Program-made: the position numbers and the translations under genes
The notes under the pieces: model-generated
The model's input: the letters and a program-made list of their open reading frames with translations, nothing else
Database searches by the model: none
What the model was told of the DNA's origin: nothing
DNA from: Clostridia bacterium
GTDB lineage: Bacteria; Bacillota; DUOV01; Zhaonellaceae
Direction of reading: 5' to 3'
Assembly: GCA_012838615.1 (NCBI GenBank)
Contig: DUOV01000005.1
Location: 1-54,539, forward strand
Length of the DNA: 54,539 nt
Shown: positions 1,621-36,136 of the stretch, one piece after another
Layout: the number at the start of each line of letters is the position of its first letter
How positions within the stretch are numbered: position 1 is the first letter of the stretch

Positions 1621-1644
1621 AAGTTTCTCCTCCTCATATTTGCT

Positions 1645-10876: not shown

Positions 10877-10878
10877 AT

Positions 10879-17417: not shown

Positions 17418-17442
17418 AAAAGCCCCCTACAGGGGCTTTTTT
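17416..17442. terminator. Bidirectional terminator (htpG / end of the minus-strand cluster)
   Basis: aaaaaagcccc-ctaca-ggggctttttt. Confidence 0.75.
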
Positions 17443-18079
17443 AATAACCTAAAGATTCTCCTATAACCACTACCGTCACATCAGTTGCAAATGGTTTTTT
17501 ATACATAATTGATAACACGTTACAAATTCGGCTTTTACCTTGACAATCCATACAGTACCCTTTAACGGTACAAGGATTTTGGGTTTGCAAGCGAAGGTTG
17601 TTCTGGGGTGAAGCAACAAGCTCTATACGTTCGATAGCAGCGTTAATATCTTTACATATTTTATTTACCCCAGCTACAATTATTACCTTTTCAGGTCCAA
17701 AGGTCATAGCACCAACCCGGTTTCCTACCCCGTCCATATTGACTAAAACCCCATCTAAAGTTAAGGCGTTAGTACTAGTTAAAAATACTTGGCAAGCTAA
17801 CTGCTCATGTCTTATTCTCGATTTTTCCTCAGGTGTCAGTCCAGGTAAATTGTGATCAAGTATTTTAGCCCCCTTAGCCTTAGCCAATTCAATAATATTA
17901 AGCTCTTTTAAAGTAACAGAACCTCCACAACCAACCTTGGCACCTTGAGGTATTAAATTAAGAATATATTCTACTGCCTCTATACGCTTAGAAAAATAAA
18001 AAGCATCAAAGTTGTTTTGCTTTAAACTTTTAACAACTTCCCTGCCTATTATATCTACATGTGCAATACTACCGGACAA
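17441..18079 (-). CDS. LUD-domain (LutC/YkgG-like, DUF162) protein
   Basis: ~210 aa stand-alone LUD-type protein (GCGGSVTL...ALTLDGVLVNMDGVGNRVGAMTFGP). It has a C-terminal Cys cluster (CTVKGYCMDCQGKSRIC). TTG start. Last gene of the cluster. Confidence 0.7.
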   Translation of the reverse strand: MSGSIAHVDIIGREVVKSLKQNNFDAFYFSKRIEAVEYILNLIPQGAKVGCGGSVTLKELNIIELAKAKGAKILDHNLPGLTPEEKSRIRHEQLACQVFLTSTNALTLDGVLVNMDGVGNRVGAMTFGPEKVIIVAGVNKICKDINAAIERIELVASPQNNLRLQTQNPCTVKGYCMDCQGKSRICNVLSIMYKKPFATDVTVVVIGESLGY

Positions 18080-18129
18080 CTCTACCTCTCCTTTTTATGA
18101 ACCAACTATTTATTCTAGTACATTATACT

Positions 18130-19383
18130 TTAGATCAGTCTTTTTCCTACTGCTTTGGCTAGCTCAGCTCCATTAACCAATAAGTCACAAACAGTAGCAC
18201 AGATAATCTGCGCTGGAATAATGTAGGCCGCATATTCATCAATTACCCTAAAATCCTTAGAGTGTAAATCTCCGGCAAATCCCCCTAAACATAACTGGCT
18301 TATAGGAAGCTTTTGGGATAAATCACCTAAATCTGTACATTGATAACCATGCTCCTGGTGCTTGACTTTTTGATTAACTAAAACCCGTTCAGCATTTAGT
18401 GTATATACTTTATTAAGTAAAGGATCAGATTCATAGGGCTTATAGCCTGGGATCCGCTCAATTTCGAGCTTACAACCAATTGTATTAGCCCCTCCTTGGG
18501 CCGCCCTTATAATTTTTTCTCTCACATTTTTTATAGCCTTAATAGTTCGTCCTCTGATCTGAACTTCCAAAACAGCTTCCTCAGGAACTATATTAAGGAC
18601 TTTACCTGCTTCAGTTAAGATAAAACTTACCCTAATGTTATCCCCTTCGGGAAATGTATCACGTAAAAATTGGATACCATTTATACTTAAGATAGCAGCG
18701 TTAAGGGCATTAACACATCTACTGGGGTTAAGTCCGGCATGACCGCCCTGTCCTATAAACCTAAACCTGTTTATCTCATAACCGTTACAGCTAACGCACA
18801 AGATAGCTTCAGCCTGATGTTCATTGTCCCGGGATAAAGCATGAGTGGTAAGTGCCATATCTACATCATCAAAACAGCCAAGCCTAAGCATTTCCTGCTT
18901 GCCACTAGAAAACTCCACTTGTCTTGTCTCAAGAAGATGGTTTCTGAAATTAAACTCTAAGTGTTCTTCGGCAGGTACAGCAAAAAATATCATGTCCCCA
19001 TCAAGTTGACTACCCACTCCAGACTTAACTAAAGCTTCAGCTGCAGCCAAAACGGCTACTAGCTGCATATGATGGCCACAGGCGTGAGCTGCTCCCGTTT
19101 CTTTATCAGCTAACGGGTGTTCTGGACAGTAAATAGCATCTAGCTCACCTAAGACCCCCACCGAAGCATAGCTGTTTTTTCCCTGAAACCTACTTTTTAC
19201 ACCGGTTAGGGCATACTTTTCAGTTTTTAAACCTAGCTCTTTAAAAAAGTCCTCTACGAGCTGAGACGTTTTATGTTCGCGAAAACCTAGTTCTGGTGTC
19301 CGGAAAAGCTTATTTCCTAAATCAATAAACTTTTGACTATGCTGTTCCAAATAACCAATTGCCTTTTCTTTTAGTTTTTTCAT
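18130..19383 (-). CDS. M20D-family amidohydrolase (AbgB / hippurate hydrolase / N-acyl-amino-acid amidohydrolase-like)
   Basis: PELGFREHKT...AHACGHH metal-binding motif. ~415 aa, typical of peptidase M20D. Confidence 0.8.
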   Translation of the reverse strand: MKKLKEKAIGYLEQHSQKFIDLGNKLFRTPELGFREHKTSQLVEDFFKELGLKTEKYALTGVKSRFQGKNSYASVGVLGELDAIYCPEHPLADKETGAAHACGHHMQLVAVLAAAEALVKSGVGSQLDGDMIFFAVPAEEHLEFNFRNHLLETRQVEFSSGKQEMLRLGCFDDVDMALTTHALSRDNEHQAEAILCVSCNGYEINRFRFIGQGGHAGLNPSRCVNALNAAILSINGIQFLRDTFPEGDNIRVSFILTEAGKVLNIVPEEAVLEVQIRGRTIKAIKNVREKIIRAAQGGANTIGCKLEIERIPGYKPYESDPLLNKVYTLNAERVLVNQKVKHQEHGYQCTDLGDLSQKLPISQLCLGGFAGDLHSKDFRVIDEYAAYIIPAQIICATVCDLLVNGAELAKAVGKRLI

Positions 19384-19413
19384 CCCTTCTCCTTTTAATC
19401 AGCTTTTTAAAAA

Positions 19414-20766
19414 CTAAAACTCAGCTGCCATCACATTTCCTCTTGATTCCTGATATTTTTCATTCCCTAGTTCAATGGCTCGCTGTAAGATTTTTTCCTC
19501 GTCAACTGTACAGAATTTTTGATTTTCTAAAATAACCTTTCCATCAATAATTACCGTTTCCACGTCACTTGCTTTACCACAATAAACTAAGGATTGTATT
19601 ATGTCATGTAAAGGTTGGATATGGGCTAACCTGGGATTTAAAACAACAAGATCAGCAAGTTTGCCTTCCTCAAGAATACCAGCTTCTATTCCCAACATTT
19701 TTGCCCCAGCTTCGGTAGCCATCTTAAACATTTCAGCACCAGAAATAACAGCCGGATCTTCATAAGCAGCTTTCTGGAGCATTGCACCAAAACGCATTTC
19801 CTCAAACATATCTAAAAGATCATTGGAAGCAGCGCCGTCAGTAGCTAAAGTAACGGGAATACCTTTCTTTAAATAAGTCACGATAGGGGCAATTCCACTC
19901 CCTAGTTTAGCGTTGCTCTTAGGATTATAAATCACGGTTACTTCTTTCTTTTTAGCCAATTCAATTTCATCCTCAGTTAAATGTACACAATGGATAGCAC
20001 AAATTGGCCTGGATAAGAAATCAAGGCTATCCAGATAAGCTAAAGGCGTTTTATTGCACTCGGTAAGGGATTGCTCAACTTCCCATTTTGTTTCAGAAAC
20101 ATGAATGTAAATTTGCAGTCCCCCATACTCTTCAGCTACTTGTTTAAGCCAATCCAGATAATCTGGTGTACAAGCAAAAGGGGTAGAAGGAGCCAAGGCT
20201 ACCTTTAAAATACCATTATTATGCCATTTTTCTATATACCCTACCATTTCTTGCTTCTTCTTATCTTCTGTTTGCATTAAAACCTTAGGAATCCATCTGT
20301 TAACTGTTTGTAGCGCCCCTGTTGCCCGTACACCGATATCTGACCAGGCTTCAAAAATACTATCCAGAGTAATATCCATATCCACAAAAGAAGTAACGCC
20401 GGACCTGACCATTTCTAAAGCACCTAAACCTGCATAATAATAGCCTAGTTCTATACTATTGTGTTGACGATGCTCCTGATGAATAATACGGGAAAAGGGG
20501 AAAGTTACCTGCTCACACCACTCTTTAAGTCGCAAATCGTCTCTAATTCCTTTTAGCATATTTTGATACAGATGCGTATGAGCATTAACCAGCCCAGGGA
20601 TGACTATCTTACCTGTTCCGTCAATTATTTTTACTTCATCTTTCCATTGGTCTAATTTAAAATGACCAATTTTTTTAATCTTGTTTCCCTCAATTAGCAA
20701 ATCTATATTTGTAAGCACTTTATCCGCTTTTTGCACAAGGTAGCTAATATTCCTAAGTAAAATCAC
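19414..20766 (-). CDS. Amidohydrolase_1 superfamily deaminase/hydrolase (COG0402: SsnA / MtaD / guanine- or pterin-deaminase-like)
   Basis: Has PGLVNAHTHLYQ (HxH), HVSET, CAIHCVHL and ATDGAASN motifs in the canonical order. Confidence 0.8.
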   Translation of the reverse strand: MILLRNISYLVQKADKVLTNIDLLIEGNKIKKIGHFKLDQWKDEVKIIDGTGKIVIPGLVNAHTHLYQNMLKGIRDDLRLKEWCEQVTFPFSRIIHQEHRQHNSIELGYYYAGLGALEMVRSGVTSFVDMDITLDSIFEAWSDIGVRATGALQTVNRWIPKVLMQTEDKKKQEMVGYIEKWHNNGILKVALAPSTPFACTPDYLDWLKQVAEEYGGLQIYIHVSETKWEVEQSLTECNKTPLAYLDSLDFLSRPICAIHCVHLTEDEIELAKKKEVTVIYNPKSNAKLGSGIAPIVTYLKKGIPVTLATDGAASNDLLDMFEEMRFGAMLQKAAYEDPAVISGAEMFKMATEAGAKMLGIEAGILEEGKLADLVVLNPRLAHIQPLHDIIQSLVYCGKASDVETVIIDGKVILENQKFCTVDEEKILQRAIELGNEKYQESRGNVMAAEF

Positions 20767-20782: not shown

Positions 20783-21196
20783 CTATTCCATAGCCAAAGC
20801 TCTAACTTGGAGGGCTTTATCCTTGGGAACTATGAGTCTGACAATTGGGGTATGGTCATTTTTAGGACTAACTATAACCTTGTCAACATGAGCTTGGCAA
20901 ATTACCTCGCCCTCATTATTTCTAGCCCTAACCTGTTGTCCTTTTACAGGGAGAGGTAAATATTCATAAGGTATATCTACACTTGCCTCATGGGGACTGT
21001 AATCTAAATCGACTACAAAACAGGCTTGGCCTGGACAAGCAACTATACACCGACCGCAACCAGTACATAAATCCAGGTTTACTTCAGGTATTGCAGTCAA
21101 ATCCTCCCCTACTCTGATGGCGCCTGTTTGACAGGCGTATTCACATGGATTGCAAGGGATCCTTTCAGGACAATCAACTAATACTTTTCTTGCCAT
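20783..21196 (-). CDS. 4Fe-4S dicluster ferredoxin-domain protein (gamma-like subunit), copy 2
   Basis: CNPCEYACQTGAI and CTGCGRCIVACPGQAC. It is a paralogue of 10352..10876. The ATG at 21196 lies 8 nt after an AGGAG, so I prefer it to the track GTG at 21205. Confidence 0.75.
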   Translation of the reverse strand: MARKVLVDCPERIPCNPCEYACQTGAIRVGEDLTAIPEVNLDLCTGCGRCIVACPGQACFVVDLDYSPHEASVDIPYEYLPLPVKGQQVRARNNEGEVICQAHVDKVIVSPKNDHTPIVRLIVPKDKALQVRALAME

Positions 21197-22052
21197 AGCC
21201 CCCACTCCTGTTTATGATCTTATCTAAAAGGTTTAAGGCATTTATCCCACTTATTAAAGACTGTTCAGCCAGATTTAAGCCGCTGCGAGTCATTTCTTCC
21301 AAATTACGTTGGGGTGATAACAGAGGATAATCACTACCTAATAAAATCTTGTCTAATACTCCTACTTCCTGTGCTACCTTATATACTTTAGGCTCATATA
21401 GAAACGGTGAGGCAGCAGTATCATAATAGACATTTTTGTATTTTTCTTTAAGCTCAGGCATCAATTCATAGAAAAAGAGCCCCCCACCCCAATGGGCAAA
21501 AATTACTGTTAAGTCCGGATTCTTATCTACAAAAGCATTAAGTTTTACCGGAGTTGTTGTTGTCTTACCAGGATAATAGTGTCCCACAGGTTCATTGGAA
21601 TGGACAATTAATGGCATATTCCTCTCCTGCAAATAACCGGCAAAAATGATACTGTGTTTTGGGTTTTCTATTTCAAAATTCTGACCATCAGGAAATATCT
21701 CACCAACGCCGATAAGTCCTAAATCTAAACACCTGTCCAATTCCTGCTCAACCTTGGAATCATTAGGATTAACAATCCCAAACCCTATCAGAAAATCAGG
21801 ATGATTTTTTACAGCCTCAGCTACATAATCATTAACCATCTTGCATAAACCAGGATCTTTAAAACCAAAACCAAAAACTACAGCTTTATCTACACCTGTT
21901 CTTTGTAATTCGGCCACAACCTCTTCAGCAGTTGCAAACTTATTTTTAGGACTATCCGATAAAAGCTTAAAATAAGGTTCTCTGGCGCCTATTTTCTGAT
22001 AATCTTTAATGATTTCCGGCGGAGTTACGTGGACATGAAAATCAATTTTCAT
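21174..22052 (-). CDS. Amidohydrolase_2 (PF04909-type TIM-barrel metal hydrolase/decarboxylase/lactonase family), copy A
   Basis: MKIDFHVHV (HxH), VHSNEP, FAHWGG and GSDYP in the order typical of ACMSD/LigI-type enzymes. It is inserted between the delta-like and gamma-like dehydrogenase genes. Confidence 0.8.
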   Translation of the reverse strand: MKIDFHVHVTPPEIIKDYQKIGAREPYFKLLSDSPKNKFATAEEVVAELQRTGVDKAVVFGFGFKDPGLCKMVNDYVAEAVKNHPDFLIGFGIVNPNDSKVEQELDRCLDLGLIGVGEIFPDGQNFEIENPKHSIIFAGYLQERNMPLIVHSNEPVGHYYPGKTTTTPVKLNAFVDKNPDLTVIFAHWGGGLFFYELMPELKEKYKNVYYDTAASPFLYEPKVYKVAQEVGVLDKILLGSDYPLLSPQRNLEEMTRSGLNLAEQSLISGINALNLLDKIINRSGGYGKKSIS

Positions 22053-22341
22053 TTTCCTTACCCCCAGCTAAATCTAAATCTGCTATCACCTTGAGGGTTA
22101 CTGGTCCGACCGGATACCGAATACTACCTGGCAGGAAATGAGCCACAGGCATCCCTAAATAAGCACTTAACAATTTTGCCACGAGCCTCTTGCAGCTTTT
22201 ACCCTGACAATAGCCCATGCCAGCTCGGGTTCTCTTCTTAATTGCTTCTAAGGAAGTATCTCCTGCTTGTAAAGCTTGGATTATTTCCTCCTTTGTTACT
22301 TCTTCGCACCGACAAATTATTTCTCGTTTGCTCATAGACAT
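22042..22341 (-). CDS. Small BFD-like [2Fe-2S]-binding protein (delta-like), copy 2
   Basis: CRCEEVTKEEI...RTRAGMGYCQGKSC. Paralogue of 10081..10368. Confidence 0.8.
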   Translation of the reverse strand: MSMSKREIICRCEEVTKEEIIQALQAGDTSLEAIKKRTRAGMGYCQGKSCKRLVAKLLSAYLGMPVAHFLPGSIRYPVGPVTLKVIADLDLAGGKENEN

Positions 22342-23435
22342 GACTCCTTAGGAATTTTCATGCTAATTATTCCTTGTTTAGCTAGTTGTCTTTTCTCGCC
22401 AAAAGGCCCCTGGCGTAGCTTGGTCAGCCTGTCTTTTATCTTCTGCATTTCATCATCCACTTCTTTAAAGTTCCTTAAGCCAAGTTTTTGGACTGCTGAC
22501 AAACCTGCTAGACGACCTTCATCTAACGCTGTGCTGGCTTCTTCCACTCCGGCCAAATCACCGGCAACCAAGATTCTGCTTTGGGAGGTACACATATTTT
22601 CGTCATGCCAGGGCATCATACCCCCTAAAACCGGGGAATATATTAGGTGACACCCACATAAGGCGGCCAACTCCACTCTAGGATTAAGACCAACAGCTAA
22701 ACAAAGGGTATCTGCGTCTAAAGTAAACTCTGTTCCGGCAATAGGTTTCATATTACTATCAAGCTTACAGAGAATAACTTGTTCCAAGATTTTTTCTCCT
22801 ATCGCTTCCTTTACAGTATGACTCAGCAGTATTCTTACTCCTGCCCTTTTTACCTTAGCGGCATGAACCGCATAACCGGATATTTGAGGTAAAGCCTCCA
22901 CGATTGCTAGTACTTCTGCCCCAGCCTGTTTTAGCTGGTAAGAAACAATTAAACCAACATTACCTGAGCCTACTACTACAAACTTTTTACCCGGTAAAAC
23001 CCGGTGTAAATTAACCATAGTTTGGGCAGCCCCTGCAGTAATAACTCCGGGCAAGGTACTACCGGGAAAACTTAAAACATTTTCCGAAGCTCCTGTGGCC
23101 AAAATAATAGTTTTCCCTTCAAATTTCAGACCTTTCTCTCCACAATAAGCAGTTACAATACCCCCCGGAAAAACACCCCAAACCCTTGTATCCAACTTTA
23201 AAACCACGTTTAAGCTAGCTGCTTCCTTAAGTAAGTTTTCACCGATATCAAAACCTCTGGTGCCGGCATAATGTTCTTTTGAACCAAAAAACTTATGAAT
23301 CTGTTTAAACAACTGACCGCCAGGTCTGGAATTCTCATCAAGAAGTAAAGTTCTAGCCCCTAACCTAGCTGCTTCTACAGCAGCCCCCAGGCCAGCCGGT
23401 CCTCCACCAATCACGATTACATCAAATTTATTCAT
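22332..23435 (-). CDS. FAD/NAD(P)-binding oxidoreductase (alpha-like), copy 2
   Basis: FDVIVIGGGPAGLGAA and FVVVGSGNVGLIVSYQL. The ATG at 23435 lies 7 nt after an AAGGAG and overlaps the upstream stop (ATGAATAA). The track start at 23459 is probably too long. Confidence 0.8.
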   Translation of the reverse strand: MNKFDVIVIGGGPAGLGAAVEAARLGARTLLLDENSRPGGQLFKQIHKFFGSKEHYAGTRGFDIGENLLKEAASLNVVLKLDTRVWGVFPGGIVTAYCGEKGLKFEGKTIILATGASENVLSFPGSTLPGVITAGAAQTMVNLHRVLPGKKFVVVGSGNVGLIVSYQLKQAGAEVLAIVEALPQISGYAVHAAKVKRAGVRILLSHTVKEAIGEKILEQVILCKLDSNMKPIAGTEFTLDADTLCLAVGLNPRVELAALCGCHLIYSPVLGGMMPWHDENMCTSQSRILVAGDLAGVEEASTALDEGRLAGLSAVQKLGLRNFKEVDDEMQKIKDRLTKLRQGPFGEKRQLAKQGIISMKIPKESCL

Positions 23436-23748
23436 ATGTTGACTCCTTTCCAAACCCATGCTGTGTTTTTATTTCCATTCCTTCCCTGATTGGAGTCACA
23501 CAAGTTCGAACATTAGGAACGCCATCAACCTCCATTACACAATCGGTACATTGGCCTATCCCGCAAAATAAACCGCGAGGTTCATTAAACTTATGAGTGA
23601 ATCTAAAAATTTTTATACCATTAGCCAGTAAAGCGGCGGCAATGGGTTCCCCCTCAATACCTTGTATTTCCCTGCCGTCAACTTTTACAGTAACATATTT
23701 TTTCTTTTCCATGGTTCCAAGAATAGGATGTTCTTCAATATGTGCCAT
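23428..23748 (-). CDS. Small [2Fe-2S]-binding protein (HcnA-like), copy 2
   Basis: GLFCGIGQCTDCVMEVDGVPNVRTCVTPI. Clear paralogue of 11981..12304. Confidence 0.8.
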   Translation of the reverse strand: MAHIEEHPILGTMEKKKYVTVKVDGREIQGIEGEPIAAALLANGIKIFRFTHKFNEPRGLFCGIGQCTDCVMEVDGVPNVRTCVTPIREGMEIKTQHGFGKESTYE

Positions 23749-23799: not shown

Positions 23800-24558
23800 T
23801 TAATCTTCGTCATCATCTTCCAGTCCAGCCTCGGGTCCAACAAAAATACCGATCTTAGGCAAACCTATTAGAAGAGGTACTCCGATAATTCCGGCGCCGA
23901 TAGAAAATATCGTTCTCTCAGTAGGAGAAATAGGAATTAGCATGTTCCACAAGGATGCGGGAAGTTGATATACGACTAAACTAAAATAATTGGCAAGGGC
24001 AGCAGCTCCAACCATTCCTGCAAAAGAAGCTAACCAAACTGCTATAAATTTTTTGAAGAAATTAGCTTCTTTGATTAATTTAGTTCCTATAATACCACCA
24101 ATAATTGCCATAATAGCTCCCAGTCCATAAAATACAATTGCAAAAAATGGAGCCTGACGACCAATTTCATGGGTAAACCAGAGTACGGTACCAAGAGCAA
24201 TAATACCTACAGCTATTGGCCACTTACCCCTAGAGACAGTACCTGATACAAAAGCATTAATAGTACCTATTAAAAATGTTCCTATCCCCGCCCAGGCTGT
24301 GTGGGGAGCAATAATTTGTCCGATAAAGTTACCGATGGCAGCGCAAAGAGCACCCCCAATAGGTCCAAAAAATACTCCTGCCAAGGGGACAAGGGCTGAA
24401 CTAACTGAAAAAGTACCACCTGTTCCTAAAATAGGAATAGAAGGTAGCATATGAGCCACAGCAATTACAGCAGCCCAAACGGCAAGAACAGCGGGATGAG
24501 TATTTCCCATGCCCATTTTTTCAGTAAAGCTTTTCTCTCTTAACTTGACTTCACTCAC
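23800..24558 (-). CDS. Polytopic membrane protein, probable ECF-transporter substrate-capture (S) component of unknown specificity
   Basis: GTG start after AAAGGAGG. About 6-7 Gly/Ala-rich TM helices and an acidic tail (EDDDED). It lies next to ecfA-ecfA'-ecfT in the same operon (group-I ECF layout). Confidence 0.6.
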   Translation of the reverse strand: MSEVKLREKSFTEKMGMGNTHPAVLAVWAAVIAVAHMLPSIPILGTGGTFSVSSALVPLAGVFFGPIGGALCAAIGNFIGQIIAPHTAWAGIGTFLIGTINAFVSGTVSRGKWPIAVGIIALGTVLWFTHEIGRQAPFFAIVFYGLGAIMAIIGGIIGTKLIKEANFFKKFIAVWLASFAGMVGAAALANYFSLVVYQLPASLWNMLIPISPTERTIFSIGAGIIGVPLLIGLPKIGIFVGPEAGLEDDDED

Positions 24559-24660
24559 GACTTCAACCTCCTTTTTTTAGTTATAGAGACTAATTTAGGT
24601 TAGGTTAAGGCTACAGGTTTCCACCTCCTTGTTTATTTCTTTTTGCCTCCCCAAAGACGC

Positions 24661-25461
24661 CTAGATTCCCAGGGCCTCAAGCATATTCAAGCCCAAGACC
24701 CGTTTTTTAGCACCTGAATCTATGTCTAAGTAATCAAACCTCTTAAGCATAGCTTCAGGGGAATCCCAAGGAAAATCTGAACCAAAAACAACCTTGTCAG
24801 GTAATTCCCGTACAGCTACTTGTAGGGCAGTTGCGTTTACAACCTCGGAAGTATCGAGGTAAATATTAGGACAGTTAAGGGCAACTTCAATTGCTTCAAT
24901 CCAATAATCTCCTCCCAGATGTCCAACGATAATTTTCGCCCTGTTAAAACGCTTAGCTAATTCAAATACTGCCTTTAAATCAGTAACATCTACAGGGTAA
25001 TCACAATGGATAAATACTGGAAAACCATTTTGTTCATGGGAAAATTGAAACAAAGGCTCTAATAATTTAGTGTTGCCATGAATACCTACTACTTCTCCGA
25101 TACCTTTTAGTCCTAAGTCTAGAATTTTCTGCGCTTCCATGAGTATCTCGCTTTGAAATAAATCAATCTTGCCAAACCCAATCAACCTTTGGCAATGGTT
25201 AGCTACCACTTGAGCAAGTTTTGTATTGATATCCTGCAAAGCCAGCTCCTGACCCATTCCATTTTGGGCCTCAGTAATTCTGTTAAAAGTCGTTTTGGCA
25301 TCCAATAAGGAATAAATGTGCTCACCCTTGGCTAACCCAGAAGAACAGACTACAGCCTTGTCGATTCCAGCTCGTTTAAGTCTTTTAAGTATTATCTCTT
25401 CCGGCTCGGTTAAATGAGTATGAGCATCAACCAGCATTAACCGCGTTACCGCCTTTCTCAC
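24661..25461 (-). CDS. Amidohydrolase_2 (PF04909-type) family protein, copy B
   Basis: Has VDAHTHL, IHCDYP, VGHLGG and FGSDFPW motifs. Overlaps the 3' end of the upstream ecfA gene by 35 nt. Confidence 0.75.
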   Translation of the reverse strand: MRKAVTRLMLVDAHTHLTEPEEIILKRLKRAGIDKAVVCSSGLAKGEHIYSLLDAKTTFNRITEAQNGMGQELALQDINTKLAQVVANHCQRLIGFGKIDLFQSEILMEAQKILDLGLKGIGEVVGIHGNTKLLEPLFQFSHEQNGFPVFIHCDYPVDVTDLKAVFELAKRFNRAKIIVGHLGGDYWIEAIEVALNCPNIYLDTSEVVNATALQVAVRELPDKVVFGSDFPWDSPEAMLKRFDYLDIDSGAKKRVLGLNMLEALGI

Positions 25462-26284
25462 TTTTTAGAGCAATTAATTTTTCGCCAAATTCCCCAACGT
25501 TGAGGATAGTTTGGTTTATGGGTATTTTCGGTTGTAAGCTGCGTGCAACTTCTGTAATTTGGGGTGGTTTAATATGGGTCATTCTAAGCTTGTCAGGGTG
25601 GGAGAACACTTCTCTTGTACTGCCGTCCAACAAAACCTCACTATTCATCATTACAATGGTTCTTTCGGTATACTCGGCAACTAAAGCCATATGGTGAGTT
25701 ACAACCACCAAAGTATGTCCCCTTTTATTAAATTCTTTAGCAATATCCATGATCTGATAACAGCCACGGTAATCTTGACCGCTGGTTGGCTCATCCAGAA
25801 TGATAATCTGAGGGCCCATGGCAAGGACAGAAGCTATAACAACCTTTGCCCTATCCCCTTTACTCAAAGCAGGAGGGAAGGCATCCCTATAATCATTTAA
25901 GCCTACTGCATCTAAAGCATAGTCGACCCTTTCCTTGATCTGAGCTTCGTTTAAACCCACATTTTTAGGCCCAAAAGCTACTTCTTCTTCTACAGTATTT
26001 GCGAAAAGTTGACGATCCGGGTTTTGGAGAACGAAACCCACTTCTAAGGCCAAATCTGATACAGGCACATTTATAGTATCTCTTCCGTTAACCAGAATTC
26101 TTCCTTCTGTTGGTCGCAAAAGCCCCGTAATATTTTTTAGCAGAGTAGATTTTCCTGCCCCGTTTTGTCCGATAATACCAACAAATTCGCCTTTTTTTAT
26201 ATCAATATTAATATTTTTTAAAGCTAGACTACCTTTTTCGTATTTGTAAGATAAATTCTCGATTTTAATAACTGATTCCCTCAC
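25427..26284 (-). CDS. ECF transporter ATPase (EcfA2-like)
   Basis: GQNGAGKST, LSKGDRAKV signature and IIILDEPTSGQD. The C-terminal extension is typical of EcfA. Confidence 0.85.
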   Translation of the reverse strand: MRESVIKIENLSYKYEKGSLALKNINIDIKKGEFVGIIGQNGAGKSTLLKNITGLLRPTEGRILVNGRDTINVPVSDLALEVGFVLQNPDRQLFANTVEEEVAFGPKNVGLNEAQIKERVDYALDAVGLNDYRDAFPPALSKGDRAKVVIASVLAMGPQIIILDEPTSGQDYRGCYQIMDIAKEFNKRGHTLVVVTHHMALVAEYTERTIVMMNSEVLLDGSTREVFSHPDKLRMTHIKPPQITEVARSLQPKIPINQTILNVGEFGEKLIALKSEKGGNAVNAG

Positions 26285-27162
26285 GCTTCCCCCTCCTCAT
26301 ACCACTTGGTAAGCAACTGTATAGCCTCCTCTGGTAAAATTGGAAAGCCCTTTAAAAGCTGTCCCTTTTCTTCTAAAAGAGTGGCCAGTTCAGATACTTG
26401 AGGTGGACGAATCCAGTTGTCTTTCATTAACTTTGTATTCCTAAATATTAGTTGAGGAATGTCAAAGGCTTGTATCTGGCCATCTTTTAAAACCAGTACC
26501 CTATCAGCAAATTTAGCAATTTCTTCACTCTTATGAGTAGCAATAACAACAGTCATTCCGTACTCATCCTTTAGTTCTCTGATAACACTAAATACTTCTT
26601 CCGTACCTATAGGATCTAGCTGAGAAGTTGGCTCATCTAACACCAAAATTTTAGGTTTCATGGCTATTGCTGCAGCAATGGCCAGTCGTTGTTTTTGCCC
26701 ACCGGATAAGGCTGTAGGATGGCGTTCTGCATATTGTTCTAAACGTACTACTTTCAAAGCCCAACGGATTCTTTCTAAAATTTCCGGAACTGGCATACTT
26801 AAATTTTCTGGTCCAAAGGCCACTTCCTCTTTTACTTTAGTAGTAAACAGCTGAGTTTCCGGATCCTCCAAGACCATCCCTACAATCTGCGACAATTTAG
26901 ATATTGGTGTCTGTAGGGTATTTAGACCTGCGACCGTGATAACACCTTTCAATTTTCCTTGCTGAGAATGAGGAATAACCCCGTTTATGCATTGACAAAA
27001 GGTTGTCTTACCTGCACCATTTTCCCCCATTACAGCAATAAATTCCCCTTCTTTAATTTCTAGATTTAACTCCTTTAAAACCCACTTTTTTGTTCTGGGA
27101 TAGCGATAAGATACATTATCAACCTTAATTATAGTTTCCGCCACATCTGAACCCCCTACCAT
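26281..27162 (-). CDS. ECF transporter ATPase (EcfA1-like)
   Basis: GENGAGKTT, LSGGQKQRLAIA and ILVLDEPTSQLD. The ATG at 27162 overlaps the ecfT stop (ATGGTAG). I prefer it to the track start at 27192. Confidence 0.85.
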   Translation of the reverse strand: MVGGSDVAETIIKVDNVSYRYPRTKKWVLKELNLEIKEGEFIAVMGENGAGKTTFCQCINGVIPHSQQGKLKGVITVAGLNTLQTPISKLSQIVGMVLEDPETQLFTTKVKEEVAFGPENLSMPVPEILERIRWALKVVRLEQYAERHPTALSGGQKQRLAIAAAIAMKPKILVLDEPTSQLDPIGTEEVFSVIRELKDEYGMTVVIATHKSEEIAKFADRVLVLKDGQIQAFDIPQLIFRNTKLMKDNWIRPPQVSELATLLEEKGQLLKGFPILPEEAIQLLTKWYEEGEA

Positions 27163-27917
27163 GCAAAATTCACCCAAAGAGCAATTCCGCATAATATTAG
27201 TATTAAAACTAAGGCTACTATATCGACGTTCTGAAGTGAAATATCTTCGATAAAAGTTTTTGTTTTACCAGCACCAAAAGCTCTGGAATCCATAGCTACA
27301 CCCATTAATTGGGCCCTGCGCATAGCTCCAATTACCAATGGAACTACTAGCGTAGGATATGCTTTAAATTTCTCTATCAATTTACCCTTTTCAAAAACTG
27401 TAAGCCCGCGCATTTTTTGCGCATCCATTATTACCTTGGTTTCATCCTGGAATGTTGGGATAATATTAAGGGCAGTAGTTGCCATGTAGGCAATTTTATA
27501 GCTCATGCCCATTTTAACCAAACCTAAAGCAAGCTTGTTAATAGGTGTAGTCATAATAACCAAAGGCATAAAACATATTAAGGTGAGAAGTCTAAAGCTT
27601 AATAGTAAACCGAAAATCGCTCCCTCTAAACTGAAAAAACCTTTAAAAAGATAATGTTCACCAGGTAAAAATAAAGATTGCACTACAGTTAAAAAAACAA
27701 AAAGACTTAACAAGAATTTTAAAAATCCTTTAACCTTATTTAAAGGTAAACCAGCAATGTGCCAACACATAAGACAACTTAAAAAGAAAGCTGCTATCAC
27801 AAAAAAGTTCGAAAGTAAGAAGATTGTGACTGTTACAACTATTAGGGTAATTAATTTTACTCTTGGATCAAGTCTGTGTACCAATGAATCTCCCGGATAA
27901 TAATCAATTACACTCAA
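27156..27917 (-). CDS. ecfT: ECF transporter transmembrane (T) component
   Basis: CbiQ/EcfT-type membrane protein with the conserved Arg-containing coupling helices (VPLVIGAMRRAQLMGVAMDSRAFG). Confidence 0.85.
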   Translation of the reverse strand: MSVIDYYPGDSLVHRLDPRVKLITLIVVTVTIFLLSNFFVIAAFFLSCLMCWHIAGLPLNKVKGFLKFLLSLFVFLTVVQSLFLPGEHYLFKGFFSLEGAIFGLLLSFRLLTLICFMPLVIMTTPINKLALGLVKMGMSYKIAYMATTALNIIPTFQDETKVIMDAQKMRGLTVFEKGKLIEKFKAYPTLVVPLVIGAMRRAQLMGVAMDSRAFGAGKTKTFIEDISLQNVDIVALVLILILCGIALWVNFAW

Positions 27918-27929
27918 TTAGATCCCTCC

Positions 27930-29060
27930 TTAAACTCTATCTGGGGAAAACATTTCTATAGGCCAATTGCTTCTTCCTCGTATATACTCTACTACTTTTA
28001 CTCCAATGGCGGGTGCCGTTGTAAATGCCCCTTTAAAACCAGCCGCGGTAAACAAATTAGGTACTTTAGAACTAAATCCGCAAATCGGAAGCCCATCATT
28101 TGTATAAGGTGTTACGGCAGTCCATACTCTGACTATCTCCAAATTCATAAGTTTCGGAAAATATCTGCTGAAATTTTTAGCCGTCTTGTGAAAAGTTTTT
28201 AAGGGAACATCCTTACTGTCAAGTTCTTTTTCTTCAGTACCCTGACCTATGATTACACTACCACGAGCGGATTGAACAGCGCTTAAACCTATCCTTAAAG
28301 TAGTGGTCTTTAACATCGCTCCTGTTAAAAAACCTCCGCCTACAACAGGACCGAAAATTACTCTTGGTACAGGCTGAGAAACCATAGCTGTACCATGATG
28401 ATATTTAAGGGGAATAGATGCGCCAGCCAGTTGAGCAATTAAACCGGACCATGAACCTGCAGCGTTAATAACTAAATTAGTTGTTATTTCTCCTTTTGAA
28501 GTTAAAACCTTATGGATCATCGAACCTTTTTTTTCAAAACCTATTACTTTTGTAAAGGGACGTATCCTAAGTCCGTATTGCTTACCTAGTTCAATAAACA
28601 TTAAGGTTACGGCAAAGGGATCCAACCTTCCTTCCCTCGGACAATAAACCGCGCCGCAAACTTCATCGGGATACAAATAAGGTTCGACACTATTTATATC
28701 TTTACCTTTTAATATTTGTGGACTTATCTTAAAGTCCTTAAACCTTCCAACTATTTTCTCAGCCATTTCTTCTTGTTCAGGCGTTGCTAGTACTACAAGA
28801 CCACCTGTTTCTTGAAAATCAATAGCAAAATCTTGAGCGAATAACTTATACATTTCCAACGACTCTAAAGCTAAGGAGATATGCCAATCTTCCCAACGAT
28901 CAAATAAAGATATTTGACCTAAATTTCCTCCTGAAGCTCCAGAAGCAAATTCATTTTTGTCTAAAATAACTGTATCATAGCCTGCTTTGGCAAGGTTATA
29001 GGCAATAGCAGAACCGAGTACCCCTCCGCCAACTACTACGACATCGGCTCTTTCAGACAT
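27930..29060 (-). CDS. FAD-dependent oxidoreductase, DAO family (beta-like subunit), copy 2
   Basis: DVVVVGGGVLGSAIAYNLAKAGYDTVILDK. ~376 aa. Paralogue of 8943..10088, but separated from its alpha/gamma/delta-like partners by the ECF genes. Confidence 0.8.
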   Translation of the reverse strand: MSERADVVVVGGGVLGSAIAYNLAKAGYDTVILDKNEFASGASGGNLGQISLFDRWEDWHISLALESLEMYKLFAQDFAIDFQETGGLVVLATPEQEEMAEKIVGRFKDFKISPQILKGKDINSVEPYLYPDEVCGAVYCPREGRLDPFAVTLMFIELGKQYGLRIRPFTKVIGFEKKGSMIHKVLTSKGEITTNLVINAAGSWSGLIAQLAGASIPLKYHHGTAMVSQPVPRVIFGPVVGGGFLTGAMLKTTTLRIGLSAVQSARGSVIIGQGTEEKELDSKDVPLKTFHKTAKNFSRYFPKLMNLEIVRVWTAVTPYTNDGLPICGFSSKVPNLFTAAGFKGAFTTAPAIGVKVVEYIRGRSNWPIEMFSPDRV

Positions 29061-29113
29061 TGCCTCACTCCCTTCTGGTTCAGCTCATCTAATTGTCATT
29101 TAGAAAGGAAACT

Positions 29114-29147
29114 AACTTGGCTTTCCCAAACCAGGAAAGGCCAAGTT
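29114..29147 (-). other. Strong stem-loop between the Mch-like gene and the downstream genes (possible partial terminator or processing site)
   Basis: 13-bp stem with one bulge: aacttggctttcc / ggaaaggccaagtt, with a 7-nt loop. The minus-strand 3' flank is AGTTTCCTTTCT. Confidence 0.4.
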
Positions 29148-29163
29148 AATTGTAAACTGCTAA

Positions 29164-30132
29164 TTATGCTTTTCTATAAAAAGATTTTTTCAACTTATCC
29201 GGTCTGATTACCCCAGCTTCAAAGGTACTACCAGTTGCATAATTAGTTATTTCATACCGGGCTACTGTATGTATATCTTTATCAACAATATAAAAATCAC
29301 GTTTACCTTCTTCAAAAATATCTATAAAATCCTCACCATAACGCCTTGAAGCATTAAAAGGCAGCTTTTCAATAACTTCCTCTACTTCTGCATCTGTACA
29401 ATCTACCACATAGCGTACCGTAACCCCGTAAAGAAGAGCTGTATTAACTCTGTCCATAGCAAATAACTCGTCTTTTACCGGAGGAGCAATGGGGCAAGTT
29501 CCCATGCCGCTGATTATCTTACTTATATCAAAACCTTTACGTTGAATTCTCCAGATAGACGCTTCAACTGTTCGAGAGCAGACCTGGATTGAGCCTGCCA
29601 GACTACCTGTTTTAGCTGCCAAAATATAGACGTTCTCTACTGGAATCTTACACTCATCTGCTATTTGCTGAGCTAGTGCTTCATCCGGTATTTCCTGAGT
29701 TTGGGCTGCAAAAACAGTCTCATGGTGGATATCTTGATAGTGCCAACATTGGGAGAAGATATCATTTTTAGCTATAGCTCTAGCTGGGCCGGAACCAATT
29801 GGATTAATATAACCTGGAATATCTTTGCTAGGCATTTTCCAGCCTGAAAACTGGGAAGACAAACAAGCAGTAGCCGGATGGTCGATATACACATCAATTG
29901 AAGGCAAAGTTATATCATCTGCAGAGAAAGTGCCAAAGTCCACATGACCAAGACCTCCAATGGTAGCTTCCACAAAAAGTTTGCCAGCCAGATAGCCTCC
30001 GGGCATTTCCACCCCCATATCCACTACTGTAGCTCCATTTTTCAGCTTGATGACTTTGCAGTTCAATTGTTCAGCATAAGGGATAATCTTTTCTTTAACA
30101 ATCCTGACTGCTTCTTGGTTAACACTAAACAT
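29164..30132 (-). CDS. Methenyltetrahydromethanopterin cyclohydrolase (Mch)-family protein
   Basis: 322 aa, collinear with archaeal Mch as I recall it. Shared blocks are SVN.EA...L.NG.TV.D.GVE..GG..AG.LF, DHPA...Q..GW, GSGPARA, ADEC....ENVY.L.A.T.S..GS.Q...R.VE, G..PIAP, DFY..D and G.I. Confidence 0.8.
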   Translation of the reverse strand: MFSVNQEAVRIVKEKIIPYAEQLNCKVIKLKNGATVVDMGVEMPGGYLAGKLFVEATIGGLGHVDFGTFSADDITLPSIDVYIDHPATACLSSQFSGWKMPSKDIPGYINPIGSGPARAIAKNDIFSQCWHYQDIHHETVFAAQTQEIPDEALAQQIADECKIPVENVYILAAKTGSLAGSIQVCSRTVEASIWRIQRKGFDISKIISGMGTCPIAPPVKDELFAMDRVNTALLYGVTVRYVVDCTDAEVEEVIEKLPFNASRRYGEDFIDIFEEGKRDFYIVDKDIHTVARYEITNYATGSTFEAGVIRPDKLKKSFYRKA

Positions 30133-30185: not shown

Positions 30186-30917
30186 TTAATCAAGGGGTCC
30201 ATCAGTCTTACGCAACATGGTCAGCTTCATGATTTCCGGTTTAAAGTAACACTTAGCACTACAAATAGCTTCATCCTTAAAATTGAAATATACCTCTTCC
30301 CAGGCAAATAACGGGCACAGTAGCGGTACATCCAGGTAATTTGCTAAAACTTCATCACTTATTGCAGCCTGAAAGTAAATCAGGGTTTGAGCTACTTCTT
30401 GATTACAATACTTCTTTAAAAACTTAAAAATGCTACGGCCTACTTGTTTAAGATCGGGCTGGATCAGGAATAGTCTTTGAGGAATGAATATTTCACAATA
30501 AATTGCAGGATTGTTATCGGCGTAATAAAGCCCCTTTCTAACCAATACTAGTTCATCATCTTCCAGCTTAAGAAACTTTTTAATTTTATCATCAGCTTTA
30601 ATAAATTCGTTATTGAGTAATTTAAAGCTGGCTTGATGATTGCCATCCTCTATTAGATTGATAAAATCTTGAATTTGGTCAATGCGCATAACAGTATTTA
30701 AAGCACTTGCATGAATAAAATTGCCAAATCCATGTTTTTTACTAATAATACCTTCTTTATCTAAAGTCCTCAAAACTTCACGTATGGTACTGCGACTGAC
30801 ATTGAGTTGCTCGGCCAGACTGTCTTCCGAAGGCAACTGGTTATTTTTTTTAAGATTTAAATTATTAATCAATTTCAGCAAATTATGCTTTGTTTCTATG
30901 TAAAGTGAATTTCTCAC
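30186..30917 (-). CDS. GntR-family (HutC-like, UTRA effector domain) transcriptional regulator
   Basis: wHTH LPSEDSLAEQLNVSRSTIREVLRTLDKEGIISKKHGFGNFI plus a ~150 aa UTRA-like C-terminus. The track TTG start (30968) coincides with a TTGACA -35 box. I prefer the GTG at 30917 after the G-rich RBS, giving (M)RNSLYIETKH. Confidence 0.8.
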   Translation of the reverse strand: MRNSLYIETKHNLLKLINNLNLKKNNQLPSEDSLAEQLNVSRSTIREVLRTLDKEGIISKKHGFGNFIHASALNTVMRIDQIQDFINLIEDGNHQASFKLLNNEFIKADDKIKKFLKLEDDELVLVRKGLYYADNNPAIYCEIFIPQRLFLIQPDLKQVGRSIFKFLKKYCNQEVAQTLIYFQAAISDEVLANYLDVPLLCPLFAWEEVYFNFKDEAICSAKCYFKPEIMKLTMLRKTDGPLD

Positions 30918-30938
30918 TCCCTCCCCCCCTCTACTAAT

Positions 30939-30968
30939 AGAATACTGTCTGAGGTCTGACAATGTCAA
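30939..30968 (-). promoter_or_regulatory. Putative sigma-A promoter of the GntR-headed cluster with an embedded imperfect palindrome
   Basis: The minus strand reads TTGACA, 18 nt, then TATTCT. The spacer contains TGTCagacctcaGACA (30961..30946), a candidate GntR autoregulatory operator. Confidence 0.45.
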
Positions 30969-34821: not shown

Positions 34822-36135
34822 TTATTTTTTCTCATAATACAAATTTGGCACAACATAACCACCGGTCGAAGTAGATATCACATTGTTTTTTCCTACTCTG
34901 GTATACAAGCCTGACATTTTACCGTTATATAGATAAAGGCCTAAAATCTGTTTCCAAAACTCTACTTTGAGTTCCATGTTTAACATAGGAATTTGGGGAG
35001 GTACAACAAACTCTTGTAGTAAGTAATCTTTATCCCAAACCCTTTTCAGCACTTCCAGCCACTCATCTTCTGTATAATCCCGACCCACAAAGACTTCCCG
35101 GGAACCATATAGATCTTGGGGTTTAATAACTAAATCATCTTTTTGACTTATGGCTAGTTCCGAAAGTCTTTTGTCTCCCCTCAACACAGCAGTAAAAGGA
35201 ATATGGTTAGTAATAAATGTTTTTTCCGAATCGGTAAAAAGATCTTGTACTTCAGGAGCATTTAAAACCTGGAAAATAATTTTGTTATGAATGATCTGGG
35301 AGCGAATTGGCCCTACTACACATACCCCTTGCTGCTTATACCCTTGGATAAAATCAGTTATTTCTTCCTGATACTTTACTACCTCGTGGTTTACCAGTCT
35401 GCGGTAAACCAAATCTATCGGCAACTGACCCCAGTATAACTTACCATTTTTAAGTTTTAACCTTCTTGGGTCAGTAATAACAGTTTTACAACCTTTAGCC
35501 TGGAATGCTTGTTGAAAAGCTTCAAACTCCCGGATGGTGGACACACCTTCCCAGTCCACAATAGCTACCGTAGGCAATTTTTTACATCCTATAAATTCCC
35601 AAAAATTTTTTAAACAAGCTTCCACCCAACTATCAAGCAGTTCAAAGTAAAACAAACTATACTCCTTATTTATTTCTTCCAATAGAGGGGTTGTCAAAAA
35701 TATTTTGGCTAGCACATTATCTTCATTCATACCTGAAGACCCGTCTGTGTTAAATTCACAAAACTTTAGTTTTTGTTCAGGCTGGTAAAATAAGTCATAA
35801 CGGGCCATGGGAGCTGGGTCTTTATACCCTGGATCTACTAGAATCAATTCCTCTGTCAAAGGATCAAAGTTAAAATACTTTCTAAAATCAGGGTTGTTTA
35901 CATAAGTAGCCACAATTTTATTCAGGATGGAAGTCATTTTCTCCCCGGCTTGAGCAAGTTGTTCGATTTCTTCTTTGCTCCAAAAAACAGGCTGACATAA
36001 AAAGGGGATAGGAGTATCTATATATTTAGCTGACGAATTGGCTACCCGTACCTTAAGAGCTGCTAAAAACTTAGCAGGATTGTCCAAGCTCAATACTTTG
36101 TCAATAAAAGCTTGTGAAAGAATATCTTCCTTCAT
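34822..36135 (-). CDS. ATP-grasp ligase resembling eukaryote-type glutathione synthetase
   Basis: MARYDLFYQPEQKLKFCEFNTDGSSGMNE resembles the R.DYM....L.Q.E.NTI..SF block of GSH_synth_ATP proteins. It lies 1 nt downstream of gshA. Confidence 0.55.
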   Translation of the reverse strand: MKEDILSQAFIDKVLSLDNPAKFLAALKVRVANSSAKYIDTPIPFLCQPVFWSKEEIEQLAQAGEKMTSILNKIVATYVNNPDFRKYFNFDPLTEELILVDPGYKDPAPMARYDLFYQPEQKLKFCEFNTDGSSGMNEDNVLAKIFLTTPLLEEINKEYSLFYFELLDSWVEACLKNFWEFIGCKKLPTVAIVDWEGVSTIREFEAFQQAFQAKGCKTVITDPRRLKLKNGKLYWGQLPIDLVYRRLVNHEVVKYQEEITDFIQGYKQQGVCVVGPIRSQIIHNKIIFQVLNAPEVQDLFTDSEKTFITNHIPFTAVLRGDKRLSELAISQKDDLVIKPQDLYGSREVFVGRDYTEDEWLEVLKRVWDKDYLLQEFVVPPQIPMLNMELKVEFWKQILGLYLYNGKMSGLYTRVGKNNVISTSTGGYVVPNLYYEKK

Positions 36136-36136
36136 C

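Follow-up and report, generated by a model that had tools for sequence, protein, structure and literature searches.

Methenyltetrahydromethanopterin cyclohydrolase (Mch, EC 3.5.4.27; structures 1QLM, 4GVQ and 4FIO) has a fold with a single known function. Genes of the tetrahydromethanopterin (H4MPT) type were earlier recorded as "recognised" in Firmicutes, Chloroflexi and Actinomycetes (Chistoserdova 2016, PMC5020050). Here we describe an Mch-like gene at 29164..30132 on the minus strand of contig DUOV01000005.1, from the Clostridia bacterium assembly GCA_012838615.1. The window is the whole stretch of DNA that was analysed, 54,539 nucleotides in length. The protein agrees with canonical Mch in its full-length collinearity, its fold, its catalytic Arg and Glu and Gln93. 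The genes of its clade, in contrast, are found in metagenome-assembled genomes (MAGs) of anaerobic bacteria only and belong to a regulated operon of importer and hydrolase genes, with no Ftr, Mtd, Mer or Fae context in the window. The protein may act as a catabolic cyclohydrolase on an imported nitrogen heterocycle.

A change of substrate in this family has been considered before. The haloarchaeal Mch and Mer homologues HVO_2573 and HVO_1937 were proposed to use tetrahydrofolate (THF) (Pfeiffer and Dyall-Smith 2021, PMC8305020). As in the present case, an Mch-family protein occurs there in a host for which use of H4MPT is not expected, carries a wrong label from annotation pipelines and has been given a proposed new substrate. 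The haloarchaeal proteins are thought to serve housekeeping one-carbon (C1) metabolism still, and the Halorubrum protein keeps E140, D227 and F280 (A. fulgidus numbering here and below), whereas the clade has none of the three.

A published route of anaerobic purine breakdown proceeds by reductive dearomatisation and then ring cleavage of the ATZ/TRZ type; according to its authors, the pyrimidine ring is the first to be opened in every known purine pathway (PMC12507026). The reductive uric-acid (2,8-dioxopurine) cluster contains XdhD, YgfK/UacX, SsnA, HyuA, YgeW/UacY and YgeY as well as YgeX, and SsnA-family genes of Chloroflexota have F420 luciferase-family neighbours (Li et al. 2025, PMC12507026). 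This cluster, also an anaerobic pathway for a nitrogen heterocycle, shares with the window operon an amidohydrolase of the ATZ/TRZ type and an M20 hydrolase downstream. It differs in having no Mch-family enzyme and in opening the 8-oxo (ureide) ring with a hydantoinase. We rejected the window operon as a copy of the 2,8-dioxopurine cluster; XdhD, YgfK/UacX, HyuA, YgeW and YgeX are absent.

Histidine utilisation (HutI, HutF, HutG) offers a parallel in the order of its reactions, since ring hydrolysis is followed by ATZ/TRZ-type amidine hydrolysis (HutF) and by deformylation to formate, and it is likewise under GntR/UTRA control (HutC). The window operon, however, has no HutH, HutU, HutI or HutG homologue, its ring opener would have the Mch fold, and an importer and a redox complex lie inside the operon. 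The redox complex resembles that of the P. horikoshii PDH1 complex (1Y56), with a DAO protein as beta subunit, a Pyr_redox_2 protein as alpha subunit, and small 4Fe-4S and 2Fe-2S proteins; for the names alpha, beta, gamma and delta we follow what we take to be the PDH1 usage. In the window these genes are interleaved with transporter and hydrolase genes, and a second paralogous set is present.

The Mch-like protein and its clade

The Mch-like open reading frame (ORF) encodes 322 aa and has an ATG start with a GGAGG Shine-Dalgarno sequence 8 nt upstream. Pfam model PF02289 (MCH) matched the protein at 353.1 bits (E=1.7e-105, cut-off 25), end to end, with residues 3-318 on profile positions 1-311 of 311. 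The NCBIfam equivalog TIGR03120 matched it at 296.8 bits, its curated cut-off being 228.8. Using phmmer against the PDB, the protein was matched to Mch of M. kandleri (1qlm, E=1.2e-70), A. fulgidus (4gvq, 6e-61) and M. ruminantium (4fio, 2e-56). It is collinear with the three solved proteins over ~318 residues without large gaps, and its identity is 41-42% to M. kandleri Mch and 36-37% to A. fulgidus Mch. The blocks SVNQEA, NGATVVDMGVEMPGG, DHPA, GSGPARA, ADECKIPVENVY, PIAP and DFY all aligned with M. kandleri Mch. The AlphaFold2 model (pLDDT 90.4, pTM 0.90) has the two-domain alpha/beta fold of Mch and was superposed by Foldseek on 1qlm, 4gvq and 4fio with TM 0.87-0.89; no fold besides Mch was matched in the PDB, where the next entry had E=0.34.

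The ORF at 29164-30132 is thus a real, full-length member of the Mch family. A sequence-only reading of this DNA had called it an Mch homologue on the strength of these blocks and had noted that no H4MPT C1 genes accompany it, and both statements proved correct. Pfam scans of the ORFs of ~100 aa or more in the 54.5-kb window found no Ftr, Mtd, Mer, Fae, Fhc/Fwd or H4MPT-biosynthesis family.

A word-indexed search gave 191 related proteins. Among the best 120 of the 191, identity to the query was 60-96%, all proteins were labelled Mch by their sources, and the hosts were MAGs of Bacillota, Lachnospiraceae, Oscillospiraceae, Thermoanaerobacteraceae, Chloroflexota and Acidimicrobiales. A scan for loci, taking one genome per GTDB species, gave 53 species-level loci from at least 5 phyla, all in MAGs. 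About 20 of these loci are from Anaerolineae or Chloroflexia and the others from Clostridia, Acidimicrobiia, Spirochaetes, Cloacimonadota and Halanaerobiales. We looked for cultured hosts among the clade members and found none, each member coming from a MAG or a metagenome contig. The names of the MAGs indicate digesters, anoxic groundwater, sediments and vents.

An HMMER search of representatives at 50% identity gave 1042 members of the Mch family. In a midpoint-rooted neighbour-joining (NJ) tree of 148 sequences, the query clade was tight and monophyletic. Its sisters were Mch-like proteins of anaerobes, namely Clostridiaceae, Feifaniaceae, Halanaerobiales and Bacillota MAGs. The clade stood apart from the group holding the proteins of M. 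kandleri, A. fulgidus, Methanosphaera, Methanoplanus and Halorubrum, and also from a large group with the motif Q-Y-A, which includes Burkholderiales and Rhodocyclaceae proteins. The phylogeny suggested by the sequence-only reading separates the query clade from the canonical Mch groups.

Residues R187 and E190 of the Mch-like protein align to Arg183 and Glu186 of A. fulgidus Mch, which we take to have the catalytic roles described by Upadhyay et al. (2012). The column of Glu186 was verified by the E186Q mutant chain 4gvr. Both residues are invariant across the clade, which argues that the protein is an enzyme and not a relic; by this alignment it is predicted to be catalytically competent.

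The comparison took in the 28 columns whose conservation reaches 85% or more in each of two sets, the archaeal sequences (n=14) and the Q-Y-A group (n=39). Away from the catalytic pair, the clade has the fixed replacements A95S, E140Q, D227T, F280H and P282V. The corresponding signature residues of the Mch-like protein are F95, S96, Q144, T231, H288 and V290, the first of which stands for the change K/Y94F relative to canonical Mch. The active-site segment 93-95 reads Q-K/Y-A in canonical proteins and Q-F-S in the clade, with Gln93 kept. K94F was rejected as a mark of altered function, as K, Y, L, M and I occur at this position across the family. The replacement E140Q is common to 23 of the 26 other anaerobe Mch-like proteins, whereas Glu140 is retained in all 14 archaeal sequences, that of Halorubrum included, and in 35 of the 39 Q-Y-A sequences. 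If haloarchaeal Mch does act on THF with E140, D227 and F280 kept, a switch between H4MPT and THF needs no such changes. Judged from the alignment, the replacements of the clade may have a functional meaning. A literature search for ligand-contact residues of Mch found nothing.

The operon and its conserved neighbourhood

All genes from 30968 down to 17441 are on the minus strand, overlapping or with spacings of at most ~100 nt. The Mch-like gene opens an operon of ~13.5 kb and 15 genes containing a GntR/UTRA regulator, a complete energy-coupling factor (ECF) importer, a set of flavoprotein and Fe-S proteins, three amidohydrolases and an M20 hydrolase. The regulator (30186..30968) lies 53 nt upstream of the Mch-like gene and has a GntR domain with a UTRA effector domain of the HutC/PhnF type. 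Its best NCBIfam matches were PhnR, HutC (second) and PhnF, all under cut-off, and it is likely a substrate-responsive repressor of the operon. Between the Mch-like and DAO genes is a weak terminator-like hairpin with a T-rich tract (29112..29134; 9 pairs, 3 of them G-C), which may have arisen by chance or may be an attenuator, giving the Mch-like gene a level of expression of its own. Scans for promoters and terminators gave no more sites in this region than in shuffled sequence.

The gene that follows (27930..29060; Pfam DAO, 207 bits) encodes an FAD-dependent amine dehydrogenase resembling the PDH1 beta subunit. Its best match in the PDB was 1Y56_B (158.7 bits), which was deposited as "sarcosine oxidase" and which we take to be the beta subunit of the L-proline dehydrogenase PDH1 of P. 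horikoshii. Other subunits of this type are encoded further along: a small 2Fe-2S protein (Fer2_4, delta-like; 23428..23748; PF13510, 109.5 bits), a Pyr_redox_2 flavoprotein (alpha-like; 22332..23459; PF07992), a BFD-like [2Fe-2S] protein with the A3 domain of sarcosine-oxidase alpha (22042..22341) and a 4Fe-4S ferredoxin-like protein (gamma-like; 20783..21205; Pfam Fer4 families), which recurs in the related loci of ECF type. The BFD-like protein was assigned through its clustering family, f15, whose representative matches Pfam Fer2_BFD and SO_alpha_A3, as does the window paralogue at 10081-10368. DAO, Pyr_redox_2 and small Fe-S subunits encoded together have the composition of a PDH1-type heteromeric amine dehydrogenase, and this composition recurs in relatives.

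The importer consists of the ECF T component (27156..27917; Pfam CbiQ, TIGR02454), the ATPases A (26281..27192; TIGR04520 270 bits, TIGR04521 239 bits) and A' (25427..26284; TIGR04521 264 bits, TIGR04520 256 bits), and an S component of a RibU-like family (23800..24558; PF07155, 37.5 bits, cut-off 26.7). As all four lie within 23800-27917, they form a group I (dedicated) ECF transporter. The S-component family PF07155 also adjoins Mch-like genes in three related loci (L063, L064 and L066; related loci are denoted by L and a number).

Two genes of the operon encode Amidohydro_2 proteins (PF04909). Copy a (24661..25461), a metal hydrolase or decarboxylase, has 3cjp, of unknown function, as its best PDB match and homologues in 11 related loci; it is a candidate deformylase, because the window has no enzyme of the deacetylase type found in relatives. 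Copy b (21174..22052; 89 bits) has homologues in 7 related loci at 50-63% identity. The third amidohydrolase, AH1 (19414..20766; PF01979, 227 bits), is an ATZ/TRZ-type Amidohydro_1 protein and would be a deaminase or an amidine-hydrolysing ring opener. Its best NCBIfam matches were adenosine-analogue deaminases of the DadD/MtaD type at 303-365 bits, the window protein having 335-365 bits, with no cut-off reached, and it scored lower against 8-oxoguanine deaminase, SsnA, guanine deaminase and HutF, the HutF models giving 125-135 bits. Its relatives in the PDB were the group of TM0936 and MTA-SAH deaminases. AH1 was rejected as SsnA, with 192-197 bits for the window protein and 201-210 bits for the Chloroflexi type, the cut-offs being 444-455 (TIGR03314 / PRK07203). 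An M20 N-acyl-amino-acid amidohydrolase comes next (18130..19383; TIGR01891, 172.9 bits, cut-off 153.75). The last gene of the strand before the convergent htpG encodes a LUD-domain protein (17441..18079; PF02589). Its place in the operon is doubtful, and it was rejected as a member of the pathway, as none of the related loci has a homologue. The gene order reported by the sequence-only reading, with a GntR regulator before the Mch-like gene and hydrolases and a flavoprotein after it, agrees with this arrangement.

ORFs were called in all related loci by a crude procedure and clustered by BLASTP. The counts below are out of the 24 loci with at least 6 kb on either side of the Mch gene. AH1 was the most constant partner: 21 loci had it, and it lay directly beside 19 of 43 Mch genes. 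An importer, either a Bmp-type ABC transporter or an ECF transporter, was found in 20, and so was PDA (a small cytosolic polysaccharide-deacetylase homologue) or Amidohydro_2. DAO was found in 16 loci, Pyr_redox_2 and Fer2_4 in 15 each, and GntR/UTRA in 8. A Mer-like LLM protein was present in 12 and a MeTr-like Pterin_bind protein in 10. Twelve distinct loci had independent gene calls with precomputed Pfam families, and Ftr, Fhc, Mtd and Fae were present in none of these 12. The H4MPT-type gene seen in some relatives was limited to a Mer paralogue (168.7 bits, under the cut-off of 276).

The neighbourhood occurs in two versions. L064 and L066 have an ECF-type operon nearly identical to that of the window, including AH1 followed by M20, while L001, L003 and L065 have the Bmp-type version. 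A tblastn search for M20 (E<=1e-15, at least 50% of the query aligned) gave three weak matches in related loci. Downstream of the Mch cluster, L066 has a UbiD/UbiX/LpdD-type prFMN decarboxylase set with its own GntR gene (17173-19500), and AFOR and Fe-ADH genes lie between the cluster and this set. The Bmp binding protein was closest in structure to 7x0r ("Lbp"), 3s99, purine-derived AtzT 6pi5 and PnrA 2fqw, and its nearest structural relatives include binders of nucleobases and of nucleosides. All 27 copies of the PDA homologue (e.g. L034 9257-9856) carry [TS]FDG in place of the usual TFDD of CE4 enzymes, with HSxxH and RPPxG kept; if TFDD is indeed the CE4 norm, the metal-ligand Asp would be missing.

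Mch paralogues are in tandem or clustered in several loci, three in L065 (7944-10963) and two each in L006, L036, L059 and L062. This hints at several related ring-opening steps or substrates and would fit several openings of CH-amidine rings. Mch-like paralogues also occur in L020 and L048, which share one contig. In L036 a Moco/Tuco riboswitch (6723-6833, minus strand, 47.3 bits), the sole Rfam match, lies upstream of the Mch cluster beside an AFOR gene, which it probably controls.

Proposed function and its alternatives

A ring that keeps N=CH-N would need a cyclohydrolase and then a deformylase. The Mch-like gene is paired with genes for PDA, Amidohydro_2 or M20, and we therefore favour a catabolic cyclohydrolase, which would act on the formamidine-type ring carbon of an imported compound or of its redox derivative. 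We consider this about equally likely to be right or wrong. The theme of the loci is consistent with regulated import by anaerobes, and hydrolytic and redox dismantling, of a nitrogen heterocycle.

For the pathway we infer the substrate, the order of the steps and the direction of the redox step as follows. The Mch-like gene would be the first structural gene of a substrate-inducible operon under the GntR/UTRA regulator and would have no role in H4MPT-dependent C1 energy metabolism. A flat N-heterocycle would enter through the dedicated ECF transporter, and in relatives through a nucleobase/nucleoside ABC transporter of the Bmp type. Glu190, tuned by Arg187, may activate water against the carbon of N=CH-N, of formamidine or imidazoline/imidazolium type. 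The attacked carbon would be part of the imported compound or of an oxidised or reduced derivative, and opening of the ring would give an N-formyl product. The formyl group might then be released as formate by Amidohydro_2 or M20 in the window and by the [TS]FDG-type PDA homologue in relatives. AH1 may act on another amidine function in this molecule, removing or opening it, and the PDH1-like complex of DAO, Pyr_redox_2, Fer2_4 and Fer4 proteins may perform a C-N redox step before or after the ring is opened. Most likely the substrate class is purine-derived, with the purine base or nucleoside dearomatised or N-alkylated; an imported pterin, C1-loaded and possibly deaminated, ranks second.

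The more distant Mch-like proteins lie in clear N-heterocycle catabolic loci, which supports the catabolic cyclohydrolase. L059 has two Mch-like genes with a Bmp importer, a PreA/UacX-like reductase, a DAO protein, an XDH enzyme and three amidohydrolases (SsnA-like, AH1-like and hydantoinase-like). L061 encodes two AFORs and a PDH1-like set beside a true dihydropyrimidinase (548 bits) and proteins resembling SsnA (310 bits) and UacX. With their UacX-like, SsnA-like, HyuA-like and XDH genes, L059 and L061 are the loci that recall the uric-acid cluster. In L060, two XDH-family enzymes are joined by FMN reductases and genes for sugar processing, and L063 has an ECF importer with the S-component family of the window, AH1 and a HutI-like enzyme. 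Further support comes from the window itself, where purine- and nucleoside-type genes lie 7-20 kb from the Mch operon. A PucR regulator is divergent from a three-subunit molybdoenzyme of the XDH family (2Fe-2S, FAD and MoCo subunits; 47109-51874), this XDH operon being under its own regulator ~17 kb away, and cytidine deaminase and pyrimidine-nucleoside phosphorylase are encoded at 37571-39279.

Several observations weigh against the catabolic cyclohydrolase. The protein exceeds the curated equivalog cut-off for Mch, the clade keeps ~20 of the 28 conserved canonical columns, and its mean identity to archaeal Mch is 31.8%, close to the 34.4% of the proteobacterial Mch group. The PDB matches of the Mer-like protein are all Mer, at 130 bits with the next family at 48. 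The MeTr-like protein keeps the pterin-binding Asp, Asp, Asn and Arg, as read off an alignment with C. hydrogenoformans MeTr, while the asparagine of its "INS" motif is replaced. For both families, pterin-C1 compounds are the only known substrates. Genes of the XDH family occur within 10 kb in only ~7 loci, and for a scheme in which reduction comes first the window operon offers no evident dedicated reductase. An Rfam search of the window and 11 loci at gathering thresholds gave no match near the clusters, so that no riboswitch names the ligand.

More tentatively, the operon of this Firmicute could be one version of an undescribed anaerobic pathway that cuts the ring methine carbon (N-CH=N) from an imported heterocycle as formate. 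This would be either a fourth purine route, with a cyclohydrolase acting on the imidazole-derived ring, or a scavenging of C1 from methanopterin or folate. Enzymes of the methanogenic C1 branch would have been repurposed, the Mch-like protein in all versions, with Mer-like and MeTr-like proteins added in Chloroflexota and Actinomycetota. We regard this wider proposal as possible, though it is rather less likely to hold than to fail.

A methenyl group bound to a pterin, either THF or scavenged H4MPT, is a serious alternative because Mer-like and MeTr-like proteins are encoded in about half of the related loci. In the first form of this alternative, the Mch-like protein acts on C1 bound to a pterin other than H4MPT (methenyl-THF or similar), together with the Mer-like (12/24) and MeTr-like (10/24) proteins, on C1 units that arise when DAO oxidises an N-methyl or N-methylene group of the substrate. 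These two proteins share the operon with DAO, Pyr_redox_2 and Fer2_4, and the pterin-binding residues of the MeTr-like protein are apparently kept. Among the relatives of the DAO subunit are the sarcosine oxidase and dimethylglycine dehydrogenase families, which pass C1 units to THF. The distant locus L062 joins Mch-like proteins, there in SDR-Mch pairs, with a corrinoid protein, a URO-D methyltransferase and a Pterin_bind protein and, from its gene content, looks like real pterin C1 chemistry. The overall divergence from true Mch is modest, which would suit any action on a pterin, and a switch of haloarchaeal Mch and Mer to THF has been proposed in print (PMC8305020). However, the window operon has the Mch gene in first place with no Mer-like or MeTr-like gene, and FolD already serves the methenyl-THF cyclohydrolase step in bacteria. 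The near-constant pairing with AH1 and the small deacetylase or deformylase would also be left unexplained, and the clade has replaced E140, D227 and F280, all three of which Halorubrum Mch, from the group proposed to work on THF, keeps. On balance we think this form doubtful.

In the second form, methanopterin or folate from neighbouring organisms, for example from methanogen necromass, is imported; the Mch-like, Mer-like and MeTr-like proteins and the deformylase strip its C1 unit, the pterin loses its amino group to AH1, and the bond from C to N10 is cut by the DAO complex. This overlaps with the catabolic cyclohydrolase, the imported heterocycle being named as a C1-loaded pterin. Three pterin-C1 enzyme families alongside a vitamin-type importer (ECF with a RibU-like S component) speak for it, and the more distant structural relatives of the Bmp protein include the T. 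pallidum lipoprotein 4iil, presumably a riboflavin binder. Aldehyde, sugar and tail fragments could be processed by the products of AFOR, Fe-ADH, PfkB, UxaC-like and M20 genes, which recur within the clusters or close by, the habitats of the MAGs are those of methanogens, and E140Q might suit a deaminated 2-oxo ring, a point of pure inference. No such pathway is known, however, and the substrate pool would be small. AH1 groups with deaminases of the adenosine type and not with those acting on pterin or 8-oxoguanine, and the nearest relatives of the Bmp protein bind small bases and nucleosides, not an anionic cofactor of 770 Da. We consider this form improbable.

To our knowledge most hosts are fermenters or syntrophs, in which H4MPT synthesis is not known. 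This already counts against an ordinary methenyl-H4MPT cyclohydrolase of a dispersed C1 pathway with its partner genes elsewhere in the genome, an unlikely and in our view highly improbable account despite the TIGR03120 cut-off passed, the intact catalytic residues and the H4MPT-type genes recognised in Firmicutes, Chloroflexi and Actinomycetes (PMC5020050), since the catabolic operon context is tightly conserved across phyla, no Ftr/Fhc, Mtd or Fae is found in the loci examined, and the clade has specific replacements at conserved Mch positions.

The sequence-only reading had further suggested that the fold was recruited for a different cyclic amidine, and had asked for a comparison of the active site. 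In the sequence alignment the catalytic Arg and Glu are kept and five other positions carry clade-fixed replacements. The suggestion stands in so far as the context without H4MPT is conserved across a clade of several phyla that carries fixed replacements. The part on the substrate is less secure, given the equivalog cut-off passed, the catalytic pair kept and the slight divergence.

A full-text literature search found no account of the clade, of its catabolic operon or of a role of the Mch fold outside C1 metabolism, two relevant subscription papers lying outside the search, and no link of the Mch family to purine or heterocycle catabolism. TIGR03120 and the names given by the sources label the whole bacterial clade as methenyltetrahydromethanopterin cyclohydrolase, and annotation pipelines have probably mislabelled it. 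The mch gene serves as a metagenome marker of methanogenesis and methylotrophy; if mislabelled, the genes of the clade inflate the C1-pathway signal for Bacillota and Chloroflexota in digesters, sediments and guts. A second substrate, if true, would be the first functional diversification of the Mch fold and would show how methanogenic C1 enzymes came to be recruited into catabolism. The cluster, widespread in uncultured Anaerolineae and Clostridia, points to a nitrogen-rich substrate derived from necromass, either of nucleic acids or of cofactors.

Host and other features of the window

The HtpG encoded in the window shares 60-68% identity with its counterparts in Zhaonella, Desulfotomaculum and Desulfitobacterium, and a Germane sporulation protein is also encoded; the host is therefore taken to be an uncultured member of the Bacillota.

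A molybdopterin oxidoreductase of the formate-dehydrogenase type is encoded in two ORFs at 6616-8652 on the minus strand, with an in-frame stop between them. Read-through of this stop gives IDHCARL*HSPTVAGL, a site like those of selenocysteine (Sec), and by this reading the two ORFs are probably one Sec-containing gene. Its Fe-S/NAD-binding partner is at 4699-6615. The second paralogous PDH1-like set (8943-12304, minus strand), with DAO, BFD-like, 4Fe-4S, Pyr_redox_2 and Fer2_4 proteins, adjoins the Sec-type formate dehydrogenase, and an OpuA-type betaine ABC transporter is encoded nearby (733-3430). This suggests a separate dehydrogenase for an N-methyl compound or a cyclic amino acid. At 34822-37438, on the minus strand, a GCS2-type glutamate-cysteine ligase homologue is encoded beside an ATP-grasp protein resembling glutathionylspermidine synthase, and the two could form a predicted ligase pair for a small thiol or peptide.

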